Assembly: GCF_963967315.1 (NCBI RefSeq) | Contig: NZ_OZ017288.1 | Coordinates: forward strand, 90,001-122,000 | Origin: Candidatus Minimicrobia sp. QA0096 | Lineage (GTDB): Bacteria > Patescibacteriota > Saccharimonadia > Saccharimonadales > Saccharimonadaceae | Reading direction: 5' to 3' | Length of the DNA stretch: 32,000 bases | Shown here: piece after piece, positions 17,400 through 30,727 of the stretch | Layout of the letters: the number at the start of each line of letters is the position of its first letter | How positions within the stretch are numbered: the first letter of the stretch is position 1 | Made by a program: the position numbers and the translations under genes | The notes under the pieces: generated by a model | Databases searched by the model: none | Told to the model about the DNA's origin: nothing | The model's input: only the letters and a program-made list of their open reading frames with translations

Positions 17400-18713
17400 T
17401 TACGCTTTCTTGTCCAAAACCACAAGGTGCTCAATGTGCGGCGTTCTCGGGAAGAAATTGTAGCCTTGATGATGCGCGATTTCGTATTTTTCCTGAAGCA
17501 GGCTGACGTCTCGCGCTTGCGTGACTGGATTACAGCTCAGATAAATAATCCTAGGCGGCTCAGTTTCCAGCAGTCGATTAGTAACATCCGCGTGAAGTCC
17601 AGCGCGCGGCGGATCAACGATGACAATTTGTTCGCCCGTTATATATTCCAGAGATTTTTCGCTCGGCGCCAAAATCGCCTTGGCATTCGGTCGATTCAGC
17701 TTGGTGATATTCCTCTGCATTTCCGCGACGGCATGTTCGTTAATCTCCACCAGCGTCACGTCATCGCCTCCAATTGTCAAACCAATTGTTCCAACTCCAG
17801 AATAAAGGTCAAGGGTCGGCATTTTTTCACTGCAATCGATCCACGCTTTCATGTCGCTTAAAGCTTTTTCGTAAACGGGAATGTTGACTTGGAAAAATCC
17901 TTCGCAAGCGTAGTTGAAGGCGACGCCTAAAATCGTGTCGCTCAGTGTTGTGTCACCGAGTTTGTTCAAACGTTCGGTGATTCTACTGGCTGGGCTTTTG
18001 GGGTCGGAATAGATTATTTCGCCACCTTTGGCTGATAATAATTTGGCTTCATCGTCGGAAATCAGATTTTCTATCTTATCTTTTACGTACAATTGCCAGA
18101 CAGCGTTTCCCTGTTGATCTGAGCGAATCAAGAGTGTTTTTAATTGGCGAGCGACAATCGGCTTTTCTAGTAATAGGTTGCGGATTTCAATTGCCAATTT
18201 ATTTATGCTCGGATGTGCCAAGCTGGTTCCGTCAACGATGACCTTCCCTTTGCCGCCACGCTTGAAAAACGCCAAGTCTAAAGTTTCCTTTTCGTCGTCG
18301 TCCGTTTTGTCGCCAAACCAACTGAACTCGACTTTGTTGCGATAATTAAATTCCACGCCGTCGGAAAATACCTTGATTTTTTCAGGCAATGTGATGTTGT
18401 GAAGTAAAAAAGCCTCTTCGATTAGCGACGCTTTGTGTGATTGCTCGCTGGACATCGGCATTATTTGCCAAGGACTGGTGCTTAAATAGCTATTTTCATC
18501 CTTCGGTGTAATTCGCTCTGGGCTTTCCTCGATAATTTCCGCCACTATTCCTTCGACGAAGTGTGATTTTTTCTTTGTCACGCGAATCGTTACTAATTCA
18601 CCAGGCAGCCCTCCCCAGACGAATGCTTTGCGGCCGTCGTCAAGTGTCCCGATGGCTTGCCCGCCGCCAACGATTTTTTCCAATCTTAAAGTCTCAAAAA
18701 TTTGTTTTCTCAT
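17400..18713 (-). CDS. 23S rRNA (uracil-5)-methyltransferase, RumA/RlmD family
   Basis: 437 aa. N-terminal TRAM-like region, SAM motif LDLYSGVGTIG, and catalytic Cys in YLSCNP. Confidence 0.85.
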   Translation of the reverse strand: MRKQIFETLRLEKIVGGGQAIGTLDDGRKAFVWGGLPGELVTIRVTKKKSHFVEGIVAEIIEESPERITPKDENSYLSTSPWQIMPMSSEQSHKASLIEEAFLLHNITLPEKIKVFSDGVEFNYRNKVEFSWFGDKTDDDEKETLDLAFFKRGGKGKVIVDGTSLAHPSINKLAIEIRNLLLEKPIVARQLKTLLIRSDQQGNAVWQLYVKDKIENLISDDEAKLLSAKGGEIIYSDPKSPASRITERLNKLGDTTLSDTILGVAFNYACEGFFQVNIPVYEKALSDMKAWIDCSEKMPTLDLYSGVGTIGLTIGGDDVTLVEINEHAVAEMQRNITKLNRPNAKAILAPSEKSLEYITGEQIVIVDPPRAGLHADVTNRLLETEPPRIIYLSCNPVTQARDVSLLQEKYEIAHHQGYNFFPRTPHIEHLVVLDKKA

Positions 18714-18757
18714 TAGGTTATATTATATCAGGATGTGTGGATTTTTTCTGTCTGGCG

Positions 18758-18766
18758 TGCTATAAT
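18758..18766 (+). promoter_or_regulatory. Extended -10 promoter (TGCTATAAT) for tRNA-Gln
   Basis: TG at 18758-18759 and TATAAT at 18761-18766, 20 nt upstream of the tRNA 5' end. Confidence 0.45.
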
Positions 18767-18786
18767 CGTCATTGTCCTGGCAATAG

Positions 18787-18861
18787 TGGGACGTCGCCAA
18801 GTGGTAAGGCACTGGGTTTTGGTCCCAGCATTCGCAGGTTCGAATCCTGCCGTCCCAGCCA
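18787..18861 (+). tRNA. tRNA-Gln (anticodon UUG), CCA encoded
   Basis: Cloverleaf folded by hand. Acceptor UGGGACG/CGUCCCA, D-stem GCC/GGC, anticodon stem CUGGG/CCCAG with loop UUUUGGU (UUG at 18819-18821), T-arm GCAGG-UUCGAAU-CCUGC, then G-CCA. Confidence 0.93.
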
Positions 18862-18937
18862 AATTTGAACAGACATAAACAGTCGCTCTTTTGGGCGATT
18901 TTTTGTTTTTATATTAAATTTCAGAAACAGAGTGGTG

Positions 18938-19519
18938 CTATTTTATAAAAATACCCAGTAAGCCGATGATTAAAGATATTATGGAGATGATAGTTGGTAT
19001 CCAGAATTTTTTAGATTGTACTCTGCTTGTATAATATAATGCTTTCATTCTTTCTTTTATTATGTTGATTTTTTCGTAAAATCCTCTCAAAAAATATTCG
19101 TAGTCATTAATCACCCATTCGTCATATAACAGATCTCCAGTATCGCCGTTGTATGCGCCGCTAAGTTCTGTATTGTCACGATTAGTCATAGTCTCTATAT
19201 ATTTAGCCTGCCTGTCTATACTTTCAATAATTAATTGTATGTCAGATTTTTTAATTTCATAATTATCAAATAGTTTAGAGTATTGGTTAAGCAATAGAAA
19301 TGGCGTCTCTCTCATTACTCTTGCCGCTCCAAATTCAGTGAGAGCGCGCACTTCGTTGTTTGTATATTCAAGGCTTTCTTTACAGGTGTTTATTTTCTTG
19401 TCTATTATACTATCTATATAGATTATCTCCGGTTTTATAGAGGTCTTGTAAATAAAAGTTTTCGCAGTATTATAGAATATTTTCTTGATTGTATGTCTCT
19501 GATTGTATTCTCTTGTCAT
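18938..19519 (-). CDS. Hypothetical AT-rich orphan protein with a C-terminal TM anchor
   Basis: 193 aa. The sequence is visibly more AT-rich than its neighbours. C-terminus FWIPTIISIISLIIGLLGIFIK. TACAAT box lies 6 nt upstream of the ATG. Confidence 0.6.
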   Translation of the reverse strand: MTREYNQRHTIKKIFYNTAKTFIYKTSIKPEIIYIDSIIDKKINTCKESLEYTNNEVRALTEFGAARVMRETPFLLLNQYSKLFDNYEIKKSDIQLIIESIDRQAKYIETMTNRDNTELSGAYNGDTGDLLYDEWVINDYEYFLRGFYEKINIIKERMKALYYTSRVQSKKFWIPTIISIISLIIGLLGIFIK

Positions 19520-19571
19520 GTCAATATTGTATCAACTTTTGTATACCCTAGTATTATTTAAATTTATGAAT

Positions 19572-19604
19572 CTATAAAAAAGTCCCCACTCGCTAGTGAG
19601 GACT
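19572..19604 (-). terminator. Intrinsic terminator of greA
   Basis: On the minus strand, the 10-bp stem AGUCCUCACU / AGUGGGGACU has loop AGCG and is followed by UUUUUUAUAG. Confidence 0.7.
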
Positions 19605-19629
19605 AAACTGTCGTGGTGGACAATTGAGA

Positions 19630-20088
19630 TTAGCTAATGTTGATAACCTGTAGCTGCTTGGTCGCCAAGCCGTTTTTCCAGGAAACAGTTTCGGATTTCT
19701 TGTGATTTAGCAAGCTTTTTCCCAACGGACTATCCACGGAAATTCGCCCGTCCAGAGGGTTTGCCTCCATGCTGTGAACTAGCGTATAGCGGAAAATTTT
19801 TCCCTGTTGATCCATCAAATCCACGACTGAGCCGATAGCAATTTTCAATCGATCGCGCTTCCTTGGCAGCGGCTTAGCGTGACGTAAAATATCCTTTTTC
19901 ATAAAGATTTTTGATTGGATATTTTCCAGTTGCGTAATTACATCGTTGCGGCGTAATTTGTCATCGCGTGATTTGGCGCGCCCAATTTCTTTCAATTCTA
20001 ATATGAGCGCTTTTTCCGAAATCTCTAGTCCAGAAATTTCTTTCTGAAGCTCCTTGAATCCTTTTTTACTTAAAAATGTTGTACTCAT
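19630..20088 (-). CDS. greA: Transcription elongation factor GreA
   Basis: 152 aa. N-terminal coiled coil and C-terminal ISVDSPLGKSLLNHKKSETV motif. Confidence 0.85.
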   Translation of the reverse strand: MSTTFLSKKGFKELQKEISGLEISEKALILELKEIGRAKSRDDKLRRNDVITQLENIQSKIFMKKDILRHAKPLPRKRDRLKIAIGSVVDLMDQQGKIFRYTLVHSMEANPLDGRISVDSPLGKSLLNHKKSETVSWKNGLATKQLQVINIS

Positions 20089-24972: not shown

Positions 24973-24998
24973 ATAGCCCGTTGAATCTAGCGGGCTAT
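24973..24998. terminator. Hairpin shared by the convergent AI-2E transporter gene and cysS
   Basis: ATAGCCCG (24973-24980) pairs with CGGGCTAT (24991-24998). The cysS stop codon lies in the stem. On the minus strand AUAUUUUAUUU follows. Confidence 0.5.
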
Positions 24999-26428
24999 TT
25001 CCGTGTCCAAATGCTGCCGCTTGGCGTATCACGAACGGCAACGCCAGCCTGAAGAAGTTCATCGCGAATTCTGTCGGATTCTTCCCAATTTTTCTCTGCG
25101 CGTGCTTGACGTCGCTGGATAATCAACCTCTTCAAATCGTCAGTAATATCAGGCGTAGACTCAGCCAAATCCAGCCCTAAAATCTCGTCAATCTCATCAA
25201 TAAACTGTACTAAACTCTGTCGATGAATTTTATCCAGCGGCGTATGATCCAACTTTGAAAATACTTCATCAATCAACGCCAGTGCGCCTGGAGTATCCAA
25301 ATCATCGTTCAATTTCTCGACCAATGCCTGACGTCCCGCTAATAACGAAACTGAATCGTCCTGCTCGTCCTTATCGTCGTCATCTTCCAGTGTGTCGTGA
25401 GTTTGATGTCTCAGAACCGCGTAATCCCGCCAATGATTCAATCGTGCCTGCGCTGCTTCCAGGATTTCCCAGGTAAAATTCCCTTCCGTTTGATAATGCT
25501 TACTGAGAATCGCCAGCTTAAACGCCATCGGACTAAACCCTCGCGAAATAATATCTTCCAGCGTAATAATATTACCCAGTGATTTGCTCATCTTTCGGCC
25601 GTCAACTTTTATGTGATTATTATGTAGCCAAATCTGAGAAAATTGTTTTCCAGTCAGACTTTCGCTCTGGGCAATTTCATTCGTGTGATGAACTGGAATA
25701 TGATCAATCCCACCCGCGTGAATATCAATAGAATCTCCAAGTGTTTCACGGGCAATTGTCGAACATTCCAGATGCCAGCCAGGAAAACCGACTCCCCACG
25801 GACTATCCCATTCCATATCGCGCTTGGCGTCTTTTGGTGAAAACTTCCATACGGCGAAGTCGGTAATATTGCGCTTTCCTTCAACGCTTACTCTGGCGCC
25901 AGCCTCCAGTCCCGCTATGTCCAGCCGCGCCAATTTCCCGTAATCCTTCAAAAGCGACGTGTCAAAATACATGCCGTCGCCGTCGATTTTATATAAAAAT
26001 CCTTTTTCGTCCAGTCCTTTTGCGAAGTCAATCTGCTGCTGAATATAATCCGTCGCCCGCACCAAGTAATCTGGTTTTATCAATTTCAGCACGTCGTAAG
26101 CCTCGTGATTGGCTATGGAAATATATCTTTCCGCCACATCCCAGGCAGTCTTCCCTTCACGACGCGCACCTTTTTCCATTTTGTCCTCGCCGTTATCGTC
26201 ATCACTGGTCAAATGTCCAACGTCGGTGATGTTTTGCGTTCGAATAACGGGAATATCTTGCCAGCGTAACAATCGTACTAACACGTCCCAGTAAATATAG
26301 CCAACCCAGTTGCCGATGTGCGGTTGCGAATAAACCGTTAGACCACAGGTGTAAAATCTGACCGTTTCTCTGTCAAGCGGCGTCAGTTTGTCTTTTCGTC
26401 TAGTGAGCGTGTTATAGAGTTTTATCAT
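24995..26428 (-). CDS. cysS: Cysteine--tRNA ligase
   Basis: HIGN (HIGH) motif, KMSKS motif, and N-terminus MIKLYNTLTRRK. I moved the start from the ORF-track position 26590 to 26428. The promoter TTGAAA-17-TACAAT lies 7 nt upstream of 26428, and a terminator lies inside the longer ORF. Confidence 0.93.
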   Translation of the reverse strand: MIKLYNTLTRRKDKLTPLDRETVRFYTCGLTVYSQPHIGNWVGYIYWDVLVRLLRWQDIPVIRTQNITDVGHLTSDDDNGEDKMEKGARREGKTAWDVAERYISIANHEAYDVLKLIKPDYLVRATDYIQQQIDFAKGLDEKGFLYKIDGDGMYFDTSLLKDYGKLARLDIAGLEAGARVSVEGKRNITDFAVWKFSPKDAKRDMEWDSPWGVGFPGWHLECSTIARETLGDSIDIHAGGIDHIPVHHTNEIAQSESLTGKQFSQIWLHNNHIKVDGRKMSKSLGNIITLEDIISRGFSPMAFKLAILSKHYQTEGNFTWEILEAAQARLNHWRDYAVLRHQTHDTLEDDDDKDEQDDSVSLLAGRQALVEKLNDDLDTPGALALIDEVFSKLDHTPLDKIHRQSLVQFIDEIDEILGLDLAESTPDITDDLKRLIIQRRQARAEKNWEESDRIRDELLQAGVAVRDTPSGSIWTRK

Positions 26429-26464: not shown

Positions 26465-26471
26465 AATTGGT

Positions 26472-26496
26472 ATAAAAAACAGCCCCAGTTGGGACT
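26472..26496 (-). terminator. Intrinsic terminator of the 216-aa gene
   Basis: On the minus strand, AGUCCC-AACU-GGGGCU is followed by GUUUUUUAUA. Confidence 0.6.
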
Positions 26497-26568
26497 TAAT
26501 AATTTCAAGGAAGAAATGACAGACAGTATTATTACAAAACGCCGCCTGCCATTTCTCCTGGGAGAAGG

Positions 26569-27219
26569 TTAGTCCTGAGGACGTTTCCACTCTAGAAGGG
26601 TCTTAACCCTTCCGAGCAGATTGTGCAGCTGGGAGATTTGGTACTCCCTCAACTGAAGAGTGTCAGAATCGTCGATCAAGATATGGACATTCTCCTCCAC
26701 CTGCAGTGCAGGTACAGCGATCTCTACGAGATAGTCTCCGAGATTTGGTACACTCTTCCTGTGTTCTTCCAAGGCGTGCACCGCCTTTCTCAGGACAGAG
26801 ATGACTGCGCCGTTTAGACGCTTCATCATTCTGCTGTGATGCAGTACGAGCTCGTTGTATGTTGACATAACCTCCCAAGCCCGCCAGGGTTGAGTCTTAG
26901 CTGCAGCTCCCGCTGCAACAAATACATCAACGATCTTTTCCTCCGTTGAACGCGAAGCACTCACTACTCTGCGAACAGAGTGATTCTTGACGTCAAGCGA
27001 CGACGTCAAGATGTCGTACAGAACAGACATGATTGAGAGGTATCCTTCAGTCATGCTGGCAGTGAGGTCTTCCCTCTTCGAGTCTGGAATTTTACCAGAT
27101 TCCCGAAGCGTGCGTCCGATTTCATTGATGGAACTCTCCAGTTTCAAGAAGAGCTTAATGTCGCTCTCTTTGAAAGAAAACTCCCAAGCCAGCGCGACAT
27201 CATCTTTCTGTCGGGACAT
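26569..27219 (-). CDS. Hypothetical, predicted all-helical protein with foreign composition
   Basis: 216 aa. About 50% GC by eye, with C/G-ending codons unlike its neighbours. GGAAAGGG SD upstream, plus its own terminator. I recognise no family motif. Confidence 0.65.
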   Translation of the reverse strand: MSRQKDDVALAWEFSFKESDIKLFLKLESSINEIGRTLRESGKIPDSKREDLTASMTEGYLSIMSVLYDILTSSLDVKNHSVRRVVSASRSTEEKIVDVFVAAGAAAKTQPWRAWEVMSTYNELVLHHSRMMKRLNGAVISVLRKAVHALEEHRKSVPNLGDYLVEIAVPALQVEENVHILIDDSDTLQLREYQISQLHNLLGRVKTLLEWKRPQD

Positions 27220-27486
27220 AATCCCTTTCCTGTCTTCTCACCCCTGGGCGGTTAAGTGACGTTTTGCCACAAGGTGAGATTTCACGCCTCTTCTCTGCTT
27301 TTTATAAAAGGAATAAAAACTCACCTTGTATATAACTGTCTGTCAAAGTACGCTTTCGGACAAAGATTTACTTGACTTGTCAACAAAAGCTGGTGTCATT
27401 TATATCACACTTATATTAAAAAGTCAACTCTAACCTAGTCCTGTCAGGGTCTAAGACATCGTAGCTATGTCGCCAGATAAGCCCTT

Positions 27487-28359
27487 ATGTTTGACAGAAT
27501 AGACTATTTAACACATAATAGAGAACTTATGGGAGAAGCGTATTTTATGCATCCGCCTGTATCTGGATATGACAGGCCCCTTTCACTGGACTCTTTGAAG
27601 CGCATGAAAGAGGGGCTAATCACTGCTTTGGAAAAACCTTGCGTAATTAACGACTTAGGACAGTTGGCGCTAAATTTATATAACACGGCTCAAATGCTGG
27701 AGCCTATGGAATATATTGAAGGTGAAGATTTGGGTGATAGCTATCCTGACTCAGACTGGCCAGATAAAAATATAATACCGCTTGTTAGTAGCGATAAGTT
27801 TGTTGTTTCTGGAAGGCAGATATCTCCTATGCCAGTGCAAAAAGATAGAATAAGCGATACTTTTGCCAGTGAAAGTTCTGCCAGAATGTGTATTGATGAT
27901 ATGTATCGCGCCTTAGATAATTATCCGCCCACAAAAATAGAAAGAACAGATGTTGGCGGTTTTTGTAGTAATAGCATCTACAATATGGGCAATTCAAGAG
28001 TATATCTTCGCCCTATTGTTAGTGTGGCTCGTAATGCATTGATGTGTATTAATATTGCTACATTAGCACACGAGACATCTCATGCTCATGATTGTGTCAC
28101 GAATCCAGTTTTGGAAGTATGTTCTAATGATAGTAAAGAGATTCTTTGTTTTGAGTTGCGAGCCTATGCTGTAGGTAAGGTACTTCAGGACTATCTGAAA
28201 CGCGATCAAGGAGTAAGGTTTATCTGCCCTAGCGTATCGGACCGAGTAGAAAAGGTGCGAAGAAAAGTTAACGGACCTCTACAGTCTGAAAATGCATTTG
28301 ATGTAAATGATGATCTGATAAATCAACTAGATAGAGCAGGCCTGAGAAATATATATTGA
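27487..28359 (+). CDS. HExxH zinc-metallopeptidase-like hypothetical protein (the true start is probably 27529)
   Basis: LAHETSHAHD contains HExxH, with candidate third-ligand Glu residues 15-30 residues downstream. There is no signal peptide. The composition is AT-rich. Confidence 0.7.
   Translation: MFDRIDYLTHNRELMGEAYFMHPPVSGYDRPLSLDSLKRMKEGLITALEKPCVINDLGQLALNLYNTAQMLEPMEYIEGEDLGDSYPDSDWPDKNIIPLVSSDKFVVSGRQISPMPVQKDRISDTFASESSARMCIDDMYRALDNYPPTKIERTDVGGFCSNSIYNMGNSRVYLRPIVSVARNALMCINIATLAHETSHAHDCVTNPVLEVCSNDSKEILCFELRAYAVGKVLQDYLKRDQGVRFICPSVSDRVEKVRRKVNGPLQSENAFDVNDDLINQLDRAGLRNIY
27491..27519 (+). promoter_or_regulatory. Near-consensus promoter TTGACA-17-CATAAT, 9 nt upstream of the ATG at 27529
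   Basis: TTGACA at 27491-27496 and CATAAT at 27514-27519. It lies inside the first 14 codons of the ORF-track model. Confidence 0.5.
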
Positions 28360-28371
28360 TAGCGTAGTGGA

Positions 28372-29352
28372 TTAATATTCTGTTTGTAGAGCCTGATCCG
28401 TTGCCGTGACTAATTCTCGGACGATTTCATCATAGCTTTCATATACACGGAATCCTGCCGCGTACGGATGACCGCCACCGCCAAAATATCCAGCCACGGT
28501 GTCGGCGATTGGTAAATTACCCCGTAAGCGCGCAGTCAATTTGCCGTCAGGGTAAGTTTTAATAACGCAACTAAGTGCCACGCCTTCAACCAGCCGCAGT
28601 TCGTCGCCAATCAACGCACCGGGGTTATAGGCGTCGCTGTAGGCTTGGATTTCTTCAAATGGCACATGCACCAGCGCCAGTTGTCCGTCTAATAAATATT
28701 CGATTCGCTCGATCAATTTTCCCTTGTACGCCAAAATTTCTGGCGATTTTTTCATAAATTCGCGTCGTCGCTCTTCAATTTCCGCGTTGGAAGCGCCCAG
28801 TTCTGTAAGTTCTCCCGCCGTATGGAAAGTCTGAGCCGTGGTGTTTTGCGTAGTAAGCCCCAGGCTATCGCTCATAATGGCTATCAATAAATCTTCGGCC
28901 GCCTGAGGATTTATCTTCCAGTCGGAATGCTTGAACAGTTTATACAATAATTCCCCGGTCGCCACGACGGTTTCTGATAACATAATATGATCAAAGCTAA
29001 GTGTCGATTCGGCTGTGTGATGATCGATAACTAGAGTTGGGTGTGTTTCTAAGAAATGTCGCGCTCCAGGAGTTTCTAATACCTTACTGAGGAGCACGTC
29101 CGCGCTTGTATCGACAATTATCGCGGCGTCGGCTTGAAACGGAAAGTCGTTCTGCACTCGATCCCAACCGCGAATATAATGAAGATATTTCGGTATGTCT
29201 ACTGGACAATATAAAGTAACAGTCTTTCCTAGGTCGCTTAAGACTTCTTCTAGCGCCAAGCTTGAACCCAGGCTGTCGCCGTCGGGATTTTCGGCTTGAA
29301 TAATAACTATATTGTTTGCGGATTGAATGAATTGTTTAGCTGTATCTAGCAT
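28372..29352 (-). CDS. nrnA: DHH/DHHA1 phosphoesterase (NrnA-like oligoribonuclease/pAp phosphatase)
   Basis: Motifs DGDSLGS, VIDHHT and GGGGHPYAAG. Confidence 0.85.
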   Translation of the reverse strand: MLDTAKQFIQSANNIVIIQAENPDGDSLGSSLALEEVLSDLGKTVTLYCPVDIPKYLHYIRGWDRVQNDFPFQADAAIIVDTSADVLLSKVLETPGARHFLETHPTLVIDHHTAESTLSFDHIMLSETVVATGELLYKLFKHSDWKINPQAAEDLLIAIMSDSLGLTTQNTTAQTFHTAGELTELGASNAEIEERRREFMKKSPEILAYKGKLIERIEYLLDGQLALVHVPFEEIQAYSDAYNPGALIGDELRLVEGVALSCVIKTYPDGKLTARLRGNLPIADTVAGYFGGGGHPYAAGFRVYESYDEIVRELVTATDQALQTEY

Positions 29353-29560: not shown

Positions 29561-30727
29561 ATGAACAAATTTAAGAAAATCGGCATTGCTATCTCTTTGG
29601 GATTCGCTATGCTCGGTGGAATCTGGTTGGCATCACCTTCACAGGCTGCCGGCTGTAACAGTTTTAACGTTGTATACTGTGGTACACATTCTATGTCAGA
29701 ATTGCAAACAGCATACAGCCGTACAGAAATTAAAGAACTATACAAAGAGTGGTACGTTACCGAGACTATGGTTCAAGGTGGCTCAAACATGCGTGAAGGT
29801 GTAGTTGACGCAAACGGCAACATTACAGTTGACGGTCGTGTTGTAGCTACAAACGCTATAACCGTACAGTCTAAAGCTGGTACTCGTCAGCCTCAGCCAC
29901 AACGTAGCTACAAGACCTCAAACGGATATACTTACTACCAATATACAACTGGTCAGAGCTTCGTTGACGGACCTAAGAGCTACAATATTTACGCATGGTT
30001 TGACAATAACGGCTCATTTATCACTGGTGTGATTAAAGACTGTGGTAACCCAGTTTGGGGTAACCCAACAACACCTCCAGTAAAGCCTGCTCTAACATGT
30101 GACGCTTTGCAAGTAACTGAAATTTCTCGTAACACCTTCAAATTCAGCGTTAAAGCAACTGCCAAGGGTGGCGCATCTATCACCAGCTACACATACAACT
30201 TCGGTGACAACAACATCAAGACAACTAACTCATCAGAAATTCAATACACTTACGCAAAAGAAGGCAACTACACAGTTACTATTACTGTAAACGGTAAAGA
30301 AACTGGTGAAGTTAAGAGGCAAAACCCTAACTGTCAAAAAACTGTTACGGTTAAGCCAGAGCCAAAAATGATCGTTTGCGACCTTAATACTAAGAAATAT
30401 CCAACAGAAATTAAGGAATCAGAATTCGACAAGAGTAAGCATTCAAAGAATCCAAACGATTGTAAAGAAGCGCCTGCTAAGATTAAAATCTGCGTAATCG
30501 AGAAAAAAGAGATTCGTGAAATCAAGAAGGAAGAGTACAACGAGTCAAAGTACACAACTGACTTAAGCAAGTGTCAGGAAACTCCTACACCAAACACTCC
30601 TTCAACACCAACACCTAGCCCAGAATTGCCAAAGACTGGTGCAAGTGACGCGATCATGTCAGCACTAGGCCTAGGTGGACTAACTACAGCTACTATCGCT
30701 TACATCGCTAGCCGCCGCCAAATGTAA
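29561..30727 (+). CDS. Sortase-anchored (LPXTG) surface protein with a PKD-like domain and two Cys-bracketed repeats
   Basis: Signal peptide ending SQAA/G. PKD-like segment YTYNFGDNN...GNYTVTITV. C-terminal LPKTG, a hydrophobic helix, and an RRQ tail. Confidence 0.88.
   Translation: MNKFKKIGIAISLGFAMLGGIWLASPSQAAGCNSFNVVYCGTHSMSELQTAYSRTEIKELYKEWYVTETMVQGGSNMREGVVDANGNITVDGRVVATNAITVQSKAGTRQPQPQRSYKTSNGYTYYQYTTGQSFVDGPKSYNIYAWFDNNGSFITGVIKDCGNPVWGNPTTPPVKPALTCDALQVTEISRNTFKFSVKATAKGGASITSYTYNFGDNNIKTTNSSEIQYTYAKEGNYTVTITVNGKETGEVKRQNPNCQKTVTVKPEPKMIVCDLNTKKYPTEIKESEFDKSKHSKNPNDCKEAPAKIKICVIEKKEIREIKKEEYNESKYTTDLSKCQETPTPNTPSTPTPSPELPKTGASDAIMSALGLGGLTTATIAYIASRRQM

Follow-up and report, generated by a model that had tools for sequence, protein, structure and literature searches.

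The window analysed here is a stretch of 32,000 nucleotides from Candidatus Minimicrobia sp. QA0096 (Saccharimonadaceae; assembly GCF_963967315.1, contig NZ_OZ017288.1, positions 90,001 to 122,000), whose homologues bear the names Candidatus Nanosynbacter or Saccharibacteria. Between its conserved genes nrnA and cysS lies an interval of 1.97 kb holding two genes, here called A (minus strand) and B (plus strand), which a preliminary description, made by a model from the letters alone, had likened to a foreign-looking toxin/immunity or anti-phage style cassette built around a shared divergent control region. The open reading frames (ORFs) of both genes are present as described, and both genes are compositional outliers, with GC contents at third codon positions (GC3) of 57.1% and 31.4%, respectively, against a window mean of 45.1 ± 5.5% (28 genes). 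As the preliminary description had also supposed, neither matches a housekeeping family, and neither has a credible match of any kind in Pfam, NCBIfam, PADLOC, PHROGs or the PDB sequences. The features of the interval and of its flanks are collected in table 1.

Table 1. Features of the nrnA-cysS interval and its flanking genes (positions in the window).
Feature	Position	Strand	Remarks
Gene A, 216-aa cytoplasmic seven-helix-bundle orphan	26569-27219	minus	cargo of slot 1, one of at least 7 alternative ORF families
Gene B, 276-aa cytoplasmic zincin-like protein	27529-28359	plus	HETSHAHD, 28069-28092; putative third ligand Glu209, 28153-28155
Portable promoter	27399-27427	minus	-35 TTGACT (27427-27422), 17-nt spacer, extended -10 TGATATAAA (27407-27399)
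Hairpin 1, predicted 5' end of the transcript	27352-27391	minus	13 pairs; portable constant module; includes TTGACTTGTCAA
IR-L, left cassette boundary, TTGACAGACAGTTATA on the minus strand	27331-27346	minus	16 nt following hairpin 1
Leader hairpin 2, 23 bp	27266-27332	minus	RNAalifold consensus; co-varies with cassette type
Shine-Dalgarno sequence AGGAAAGGG	27223-27231	minus	with upstream purine block GGGGTGAG, 27238-27245
IR-R, right cassette repeat	26517-26532	minus	37-52 nt past the A stop codon; pairs with IR-L
Intrinsic terminator of the slot-1 (A) transcript	26481-26496	minus	6-bp GC-rich stem and T-run; constant docking site
B control region	27429-27519	plus	upstream block and near-palindrome 27436-27453, then promoter 27491-27519; about 95% conserved in B-carrying loci
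cysS, conserved flank	24995-26428	minus	Pfam tRNA-synt_1e, 3.7e-84; 97-99% amino acid identity in close relatives
nrnA-like DHH/DHHA1 phosphoesterase gene, conserved flank	28372-29352	minus	Pfam DHH, 1.1e-11; 97-99% identical in close relatives

The cysS neighbourhoods of 80 species-level genomes were fetched, and the window proteins were mapped onto them. In outgroup Saccharibacteria (cysS 63-75% identical) a gap of 28-53 bp separates the end of nrnA from cysS in 14 of the 17 loci, the other three having inserts of 0.6-1.5 kb, and the ancestral state is, to judge from these sequences, one in which nrnA directly abuts cysS. Within the Nanosynbacter clade, where the flanking proteins are 97-99% identical, the gap measures 600-4030 bp and its gene content depends on the species. 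The interval is a hotspot, in which atypical composition and patchy distribution are both present: more than 15 recurring families, with singletons besides, make up its cargo, the cassette types are scattered across the flank-based tree, and sister genomes differ. The combinations found comprise A with B, B alone, A alone, a CYTH protein with a 71-aa ORF and A, FAM2 (171 aa) alone or with B, the beta-rich FAM6 (225-257 aa), B with FAM6, tandem B paralogues, HxxEH proteins, a radical-SAM/GreA-like/CYTH set, and several singletons. The accessory, variable nature of the locus was therefore recognized correctly and indeed understated, since A and B are each a clean indel with respect to close relatives.

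Pairwise DNA comparison places the breakpoints. Genomes that carry only B join position ~26469 straight to ~27438, those that carry only FAM2 join 27427 straight to 28373, and two separate indels result, one spanning 26470-27437 (A with its module) and the other reaching from 27428-27438 to 28372-28389 (B, with a junction that varies with the locus used for comparison). Because the breakpoints are clean, the 267 bp that had been read as one divergent control region are instead two abutting modules, with a boundary at about 27428-27437, that are inherited independently. The distribution of the genes agrees: among the 42 species-level genomes with a complete nrnA-cysS interval, 5 carry both genes, 6 only A, 12 only B and 19 neither (odds ratio, 1.3; Fisher p = 0.73). 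Co-occurrence at the level of chance, together with separate promoters, largely refutes the two-gene toxin/immunity or anti-phage cassette, for which the preliminary description itself had made the joint occurrence of the two genes in other genomes the touchstone; A and B are independent of each other.

Several further observations were made at the same site. In one 3.7-kb interval (L051, 8232-9935) genes for radical-SAM, GreA-like and CYTH proteins stand beside a duplicated 5' fragment of cysS, a 101-aa ORF 82% identical to window 26153-26419, which looks like the footprint of a recombination event at the site. The FAM11 proteins (299-316 aa; L035, 548-1447, and L040, 182-1132 of the intervals) have an N-terminal HxYEH sequence (HxxEH, inverted zincin-like) and no Pfam match; they are possibly a further metallopeptidase-like orphan among the cargo. 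In many genomes a paralogue of the 71-aa ORF found with the CYTH gene (51-61% identical) occupies a constant position some 9 kb away from cysS (for example L011, 103-315; L012, 1066-1278; L013, 1109-1321). Beyond nrnA, the gene at window 29561-30727 (plus strand) for a PKD-domain, LPXTG-type surface protein is far more variable than the other flanking genes, its product being 84-99% identical in the close clade and 43-76% elsewhere, and is duplicated in L037-L040 and L045.

The cysS-side position, called slot 1, is served by a promoter conserved in 18 of 18 copies and likewise in 87 aligned ones that precede unrelated ORFs; it was read from the sequence, the promoter scan having missed it (its -10 box has no T at position 6). 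The block 27226/27268-27427 is found upstream of the unrelated slot-1 ORFs A, FAM2, F18, F23 and F26, and its promoter-proximal part, 27341-27427, also upstream of FAM6, F20 and F13. At the terminator side, homology with loci that carry other cassettes extends to 26506-26526; the terminator is part of the constant docking site common to all cassette types. That all slot-1 ORFs might be a single hyper-diverged family was considered and rejected for A, which hhalign finds unrelated to the rest; among the slot-1 families this method links F23 with F26 only (70%), apart from a translated leader common to F18 and F26.

The RNA predicted from this module is under structural selection. Hairpin 1 is 99.1% paired in its 87 distinct copies (slid controls, 35-54%), with many G·U pairs, which argues for pairing of the sense-strand RNA. 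The palindrome TTGACTTGTCAA, to which attention had been drawn as a symmetric element, does exist; it is not conserved as a palindrome, being part of the 5' strand of hairpin 1. A 10-bp inverted repeat noted on the same occasion (27269-27278/27320-27329) is real and forms the base of leader hairpin 2. The latter is 99.1% paired in 19 distinct leaders (slid controls, 44-56%), and 10 of its pairs show compensatory double changes, whereas column shuffles yield 4.5 ± 1.4 and none of 500 attains this number; a count over 20 pairs gives 8 with double changes. The minimum free energy (MFE) of the leader has a z value of -3.3. Comparison of the leader with Rfam gave no family, the best model being RAGATH-10 with 25.5 bits against a threshold of 41.2. 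A riboswitch is unlikely in view of this result, of the variable apical loop and of the long, near-perfect hairpin.

Gene A uses a Shine-Dalgarno (SD) sequence, as previously stated, the SD-like AGGAAAGGG lying 4-12 nt before the ATG, and the terminator scan confirmed that it also has a terminator of its own. A leader of some 175 nt that includes an SD precedes the slot-1 cassette genes, in contrast to cysS and B, which appear to be leaderless. Some 20 nt ahead of the ATG, the purine block GGGGTGAG offers the 3' arm of hairpin 2 an alternative partner to the 5' arm. This alternative helix is 98% paired (slid controls, 47-60%), has 2 covarying pairs/10 cells (0 of 500 shuffles) and forms in constrained folding once the 5' arm of hairpin 2 is blocked, and the three segments that take part in the alternative pairings change jointly in each leader type, a pattern that suggests a switch. 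Sequestration of the SD by the alternative helix was considered and not borne out, the constrained folds leaving the SD unpaired; a conserved upstream ORF in the leader was rejected, its frame being broken by 2-nt indels between leader subtypes.

As to the neighbouring cysS, its true start is ATG 26428 and not GTG 26590, as given in the ORF list; the 531-aa ORF starting at the latter codon is an artefact of over-extension that overlaps the 3' end of A. The promoter scan found TTGAAA-17-TACAAT at 26464-26436, the -10 box stopping 7 nt short of the ATG, and the cysS mRNA appears to be leaderless.

The exchangeable unit is bounded by two inverted repeats (IRs), IR-L and IR-R, at which type-specific DNA begins and ends in the pairwise DNA comparison; an inverted-repeat search found them to be 88% complementary over 16 nt. 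In cassettes generally an inverted copy of IR-L follows 26-140 nt past the stop codon of the cargo gene, at least 12 of the 16 positions matching in 75 of 101 distinct cassettes as opposed to 5 of 101 for a control placed within the ORF. About 13 positions of the helix pair, 8 show several Watson-Crick pair types across cassette types, mismatches are biased (G·U to A·C, 25:8), and a core, TGACARRCAG, is conserved in all cassette types. Thermodynamic folding of the A transcript, with a predicted length of 918 nt, places the IR-L:IR-R helix in the MFE structure with a pair probability of 0.94. An invertible segment was also considered and found no support: in the consensus assemblies, which would not reveal low-frequency inversion within populations, 125 cassettes stand in forward orientation, and the 5 apparent reverse cases are spurious short ORFs. 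Just past the A stop codon, IR-R is overlapped by a local hairpin at 26512-26556 (AGAAATGACAG/CTGCCATTTCT; 11 nt, 91% complementary), which would be a competitor of the IR-L:IR-R helix but has a predicted probability of 0.06, versus 0.94 for that helix.

The module is not confined to this interval. A metagenome scan with a 20-nt pattern taken from hairpin 1 returned at least 120 loci; of the 125 pattern instances, 98 have the 3' half of hairpin 1 as well and 75 the promoter motif. At least 22 families, most of them by far orphans, are represented among the downstream ORFs, and the upstream neighbours define at least six sites (der, nrnA, glgB-like, SpoU/trmH-like, pepN-like and greA). Each of the cargo families F18, c7 and c29 occurs at two different sites, and some intervals hold tandem cassettes, each with a module of its own (L017, L029, L096). 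One cargo family, c26, is homologous to Tad4 (Pfam PF25186, type I Thoeris inhibitor, 7.3e-11, 42.8 bits against a cut-off of 25), and the Tad4-like ORF is preceded by the same architecture of promoter, hairpin 1, hairpin 2 and inverted repeat. Tad4 is a phage protein that blocks the Toll/interleukin-1 receptor (TIR) protein ThsB of the Thoeris system (PMC13402655; see also bioRxiv 10.1101/2025.06.06.658234). PADLOC assigned no family to A, B and 9 of the 10 other cargo proteins scanned, its only match being a weak one (1.6e-15) of pVip (viperin-like) models to the radical-SAM protein of L051 in the nrnA-cysS hotspot.

The c26 ORF measures 135-147 aa (L206, 5391-5803) and belongs to a hotspot downstream of der/engA (L206, 5172-5880; also L167 and L118). 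A second hotspot is present in the window itself, at 18713-19630, between greA (19630-20088) and a TRAM/tRNA-U5-methyltransferase gene (17400-18713). The orphan gene in this second hotspot, at 18938-19519 (minus strand), has 193 aa, 31% GC and no Pfam match; it is present in the window and in L011, is absent from L021, and gives way to some 3 kb of other DNA in L010, L024 and L028; in L038-L040 and L045 this greA-side hotspot carries a copy of the promoter/hairpin-1 module. The 20-nt pattern also occurs on three IMG/VR contigs classed as viral (L216, 11262-11384; L217; L218), the first of which has the full hairpin and a c22-type leader, but a different promoter upstream.

The product of gene A is an orphan. 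Its GC content is 49.5%, its GC3 the highest of the 28 window genes, and its codon fit to the rest of the window the worst (-1.335 versus about -1.12). Homologues form 399 clusters on Nanosynbacter-type contigs, with protein length kept; among the matches listed (identity of at least 69%) the contigs are unnamed or bear the name Nanosynbacter, and a search of viral contigs for A found none. The AlphaFold model, with seven helices, is confident (predicted local distance difference test score, pLDDT, 86; predicted template modelling score, pTM, 0.80), and a fold search with it in PDB and BFVD returned only generic or designed helical bundles (template modelling score, TM, up to 0.37). The A alleles are mosaic in sequence.

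Gene B has the lowest GC3 of the 28 window genes (2.5 standard deviations below the mean). Two starts had been offered for it, of which 27529 is upheld and 27487 is not: most homologues are 270-282 aa long, and the promoter (TTGACA-17-CATAAT, an 11/12 match) is separated by 9 nt (27520-27528) from ATG 27529, from which it follows that translation would begin there on a leaderless mRNA. This layout is kept in relatives, there with a perfect TATAAT (TTGACA-17-TATAAT). The near-palindrome 27436-27453, one of the symmetric elements of the preliminary description, is conserved in B-carrying loci and stands exactly at the edge of the B indel.

The LAHETSHAHD motif reported for B is present. An exhaustive profile search found just 97 clusters at 50% identity, nearly all of them full-length (260-320 aa), and B belongs to a small orphan family encountered so far on Saccharibacteria-type contigs only. 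Residues H181, E182, H185, E209 and A212 are invariant in 41 B-family proteins that share 17-43% identity, the first three also in 31 close members, and E209, in an ExxA sequence, lies 23 residues past H185 inside a predicted helix (202-227). The combination of HExxH and ExxA is, at the sequence level, the active-site pattern of gluzincins, in which E209 would act as a ligand. Pfam zincin matches of the family are all below threshold (SprT-like, 6e-4 in 2 of 41; M76, M91 and M78), a profile search of PDB gave E values of 0.1 or more, and neither B nor its relatives match ArdcN or MPTase-PolyVal above the Pfam cut-off or reach a curated peptidase family; Foldseek with the AlphaFold model of B (pLDDT 45) gave meaningless output. 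The only relative on a viral contig, itself a weak match, is an ArdC-like protein with ArdC-N and marginal matches to DUF6782/MPTase-PolyVal, to the catalytic core of which the B-family profile aligns with 82.6% probability over 53 columns (hhalign). The most fitting description of B is that of a putative peptidase from an uncharacterised zincin-like family, the core of which resembles that of ArdC-type peptidases.

The distant relatives of B that were looked up stand among housekeeping genes on small unnamed contigs. In L089, L092 and L093 (P0295, P0292) such relatives (~25% identical) are convergent with an S4/pseudouridine-synthase gene, and in L092 the relative is immediately downstream of der, which is a docking site of the portable module in Nanosynbacter-type contigs.

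Nei-Gojobori estimates within the close clade show that both proteins evolve fast. For the flanks (cysS, nrnA and AI-2E) the rates of non-synonymous (dN) and synonymous (dS) change are 0.006-0.014 and 0.30-0.35, respectively, with dN/dS of 0.02-0.04. The values for A are 0.232 and 0.72 (dN/dS, 0.32), a dN 25 times that of the flanks, and those for B 0.157 and 0.29 (dN/dS, 0.48), with amino acid change ~15-fold over the flanks. Along A the ratio of non-synonymous to synonymous polymorphism (pN/pS) is uniform (0.33-0.51), and in B it rises to a maximum of 0.8-1.0 over codons 126-175, immediately ahead of the HExxH helix on its N-terminal side. The high dS and mosaic alleles of A would indicate older, recombining allelic lineages. 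A recent foreign origin is ruled out for B by a dS equal to that of the flanks, and B is found in all major sub-clades.

Taken together, these data are interpreted, with a probability of roughly 60%, in terms of a lineage-specific cargo hotspot made of two independent expression modules, with IR-bounded cassettes and with A and B as separate accessory genes. The anatomy of the interval, its variability, the independence of A and B, the RNA covariation and the evolutionary rates are shown by the data; how cassettes are exchanged, what the pairing of the repeats is for, and the biochemical and biological roles of the proteins are inferences. Module 1, on the cysS side, offers a constant site composed of a strong extended -10 promoter, a 5'-terminal hairpin and, at the far end, a terminator, into which an exchangeable cassette of IR-L, leader hairpin, SD, one ORF and IR-R is set, the ORF being A in this genome and one of at least six unrelated families in sister genomes. 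Pairing of IR-L with IR-R in the mRNA would most likely close the 5' and 3' untranslated regions (UTRs) around the ORF, and this pairing and the 5' hairpin may serve the protection of mRNA ends or translational control. The same repeats would mark the points of cassette exchange. Swapping may proceed by homologous recombination after natural transformation, Saccharibacteria, including N. lyticus, being naturally competent and able to integrate DNA via ~1 kb of flanking homology (PMC10633639); additional recombination at or near the repeats themselves is likely, given the cargo families found at more than one hotspot. Module 2, on the nrnA side, consists of the leaderless gene B, gained and lost separately, with its cytoplasmic metallopeptidase-like (HExxH...E) product. 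A and B are dispensable, mosaic and fast-evolving accessory proteins, and each most likely acts alone, in biological conflict that would involve the host bacterium or phages. To such a role point the small, orphan, patchy and fast-evolving genes themselves, the Tad4 homologue, the viperin-like gene and the ArdC-like core of B; the evidence for it is suggestive, and relaxed constraint is a serious rival.

A number of points weigh against this interpretation. No recombinase was identified in the intervals, and cassette exchange is deduced from genome comparison; the transcription start and the module promoter were read from sequence only; the taxonomy of the metagenome contigs was assumed from sequence similarity and GC content. 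Since IR-R was placed wherever the match was best, the pairing counts are biased, for which the control within the ORF makes up only in part, and the covariation derives from few cassette lineages (3-5 independent types), so that the shuffle statistics overstate independence. The inverted repeats could act at the level of DNA, instead of or besides that of RNA. As regards the proteins, the AlphaFold model of B is poor, its zincin fold being derived from motifs and the one 53-column profile match, A has no relative in sequence or fold outside its own clade in the libraries and fold searches mentioned, and dN/dS values below 1 along with B pseudogenes are equally compatible with relaxed constraint.

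The possibility that best survives besides the favoured one is that repeats and hairpins are primarily DNA recombination sites of mobile cassettes, comparable to attC, to Xer/pdif sites or to the terminal inverted repeats of miniature inverted-repeat transposable elements, with a recombinase supplied in trans. The coincidence of IR-L and IR-R with the boundaries of type-specific DNA, the presence of the same cargo families at different hotspots, the stacking of cassettes in tandem, each with its own module, and the core common to all types are as expected for such sites. However, no integrase, transposase or Xer-like gene was found among the ORFs of the intervals, nor are there target-site duplications or common junction sequences, the junctions differing between cassette combinations, and there is no inverted cassette (125 forward versus 0 credible reverse). 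Furthermore, the excess of G·U over A·C and the covariation outside the core fit sense-strand pairing, and the mRNA forms the helix in the thermodynamic fold. A primarily DNA-level role is thus considered possible but doubtful, and the DNA-site and mRNA roles of the repeats are mutually compatible.

On the function of the cargo, it is conceivable, if rather unlikely, that A and B are decaying or near-neutral passengers under relaxed constraint in a recombination-prone gap, with no part in any conflict. This would agree with dN/dS values of 0.3-0.5 that never exceed 1, the uniform pN/pS along A, the 19 of 42 genomes that lack both genes, and the frameshifted or split, and hence pseudogenised, copies of B in L022, L038, L043 and L050. 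Against it, the HExxH...E residues of B show no change even at 17% identity, the predicted fold of A is confident and the length of this protein is maintained across 399 clusters, both genes have strongly conserved near-consensus promoters, the A leader is under structural selection, and the module drives a Tad4 homologue elsewhere. At the opposite extreme, a bolder proposal, held to be about equally improbable, is that Nanosynbacter maintain a phage-like counter-immunity arsenal of dozens of small, fast-diversifying orphans, including the Tad4-type TIR inhibitor, B and A. If so, these proteins would be carried in a cassette system new to science, composed of the portable promoter and 5' hairpin as docking site and of IR-bounded leader-ORF units with paired UTRs; the cassettes would be shuffled among at least six chromosomal hotspots and between strains, and the arsenal would defeat the immune systems of Actinomycetota hosts or protect incoming DNA.

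Recent acquisition of the pair from a phage, plasmid or foreign bacterium is very improbable. The compositions of A and B, atypical in opposite directions, and the resemblance of the B core to ArdC-type peptidases of conjugative elements and phages speak for it; against it stand the unnamed or Nanosynbacter contigs of the A homologues listed, the single weak viral match of B, the flank-like dS of B and its presence in every sub-clade, and the absence of mobility genes. Least probable of all is a toxin/immunity, toxin-antitoxin or anti-phage module made of a protease effector and a helical partner under a shared control region: the genes are adjacent, divergent and unannotated in a variable locus, and zincin peptidases occur in some toxin-antitoxin and defence pairs, but A and B co-occur no better than chance, B often stands alone, with FAM2 or FAM6, or as tandem paralogues and A alone or with CYTH, each gene has a promoter module to itself that is inherited separately, and A a terminator as well, PADLOC, Pfam and NCBIfam give no match for either, and their histories differ (dS, 0.72 versus 0.29).

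Parts of the hotspot organization favoured here recall known systems. Integron cassettes and the pdif modules of Acinetobacter are single-ORF units between imperfect inverted or palindromic sites that can be stacked and interchanged, integron cassettes being expressed from the promoter Pc, and from this established knowledge the present cassettes are similar in being single-ORF, repeat-bounded, stackable and interchangeable. Unlike in those systems, no integrase or Xer gene was identified in the intervals, the ORF lies between repeats of opposite orientation, for which pairing in the mRNA is predicted, and, unlike in integrons, a copy of the promoter module precedes each cassette in place of one shared Pc. 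The minimal mobile elements of Neisseria are variable genes between conserved flanks that are swapped by transformation and homologous recombination (PMC3082526, PMC1538595). They share with the units described here the small, integrase-less, alternative gene sets at a fixed core-gene site, the patchy distribution and a host bacterium that is naturally competent (PMC10633639) and human-associated, but in the present case inverted repeats that covary delimit the unit, a constant promoter/hairpin/terminator site receives it, the constant module recurs at no fewer than six sites, and cargo families move from one site to another. As in putative mobile promoters, or promoter reuse (PMC3575422), a very similar promoter region precedes many non-homologous genes of one genome lineage; unlike them, the reused unit includes a structurally selected 5' RNA hairpin and is coupled to IR-flanked cassettes and hypervariable hotspots.

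At the level of the proteins, the HExxHAxD...E core of B is like that of the zincin domains of the ArdC C-terminal part, MPTase-PolyVal and DUF6782, but B differs from ArdC in having no ArdC-N domain for binding single-stranded DNA, in its unique 170-aa N-terminal part and in being chromosomal. With zincin-containing conflict pairs such as ImmA/IrrE M78-Xre and RosmerTA, A and B have in common that an HExxH protein is neighbour to a small partner, here unannotated, at a variable locus; unlike these, they show neither a helix-turn-helix partner nor co-occurrence, and M78 (ImmA/IrrE) is matched marginally by 1 of the 41 B-family members, with no match in PADLOC. With defence and anti-defence islands and with integration hotspots between core genes the hotspots have in common core-gene-flanked, hypervariable small orphans, among them the Tad4 homologue and the viperin-like radical-SAM gene, but almost no cargo matches known defence or anti-defence families, and the units are of one gene and have no hallmarks of mobile elements. 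The literature search found no specific description of a Saccharibacteria hotspot or hypervariable locus. As far as could be found, what goes beyond described systems is the linkage of IR-bounded single-ORF cassettes with a promoter and 5' hairpin that are reused, together with the covarying pairing of 5' and 3' UTRs and the presence of several such hotspots in the 0.7-Mb genome of an epibiont.

The genomes of Saccharibacteria, of ~0.7 Mb, are usually called streamlined and highly syntenic, and the oral Nanosynbacter are obligate parasites on the surfaces of other bacteria; to our knowledge, very little is known of what determines their choice of host. The present overview indicates that part of so tiny a genome is reserved for the quick turnover of orphan genes, and that this is organized in a modular way, with a reusable promoter/hairpin, swappable units and several docking sites. 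It yields a genetically tractable list of candidate host-interaction or counter-defence genes, Saccharibacteria being transformable, as well as an uncharacterised zincin family and an orphan helical fold. The leader/UTR-pairing architecture, unmatched in Rfam, is a possible expression device for Patescibacteria. Finally, the presence of a Tad4 homologue among the cargo raises the idea that bacterial parasites of bacteria may share anti-immunity tools with phages.

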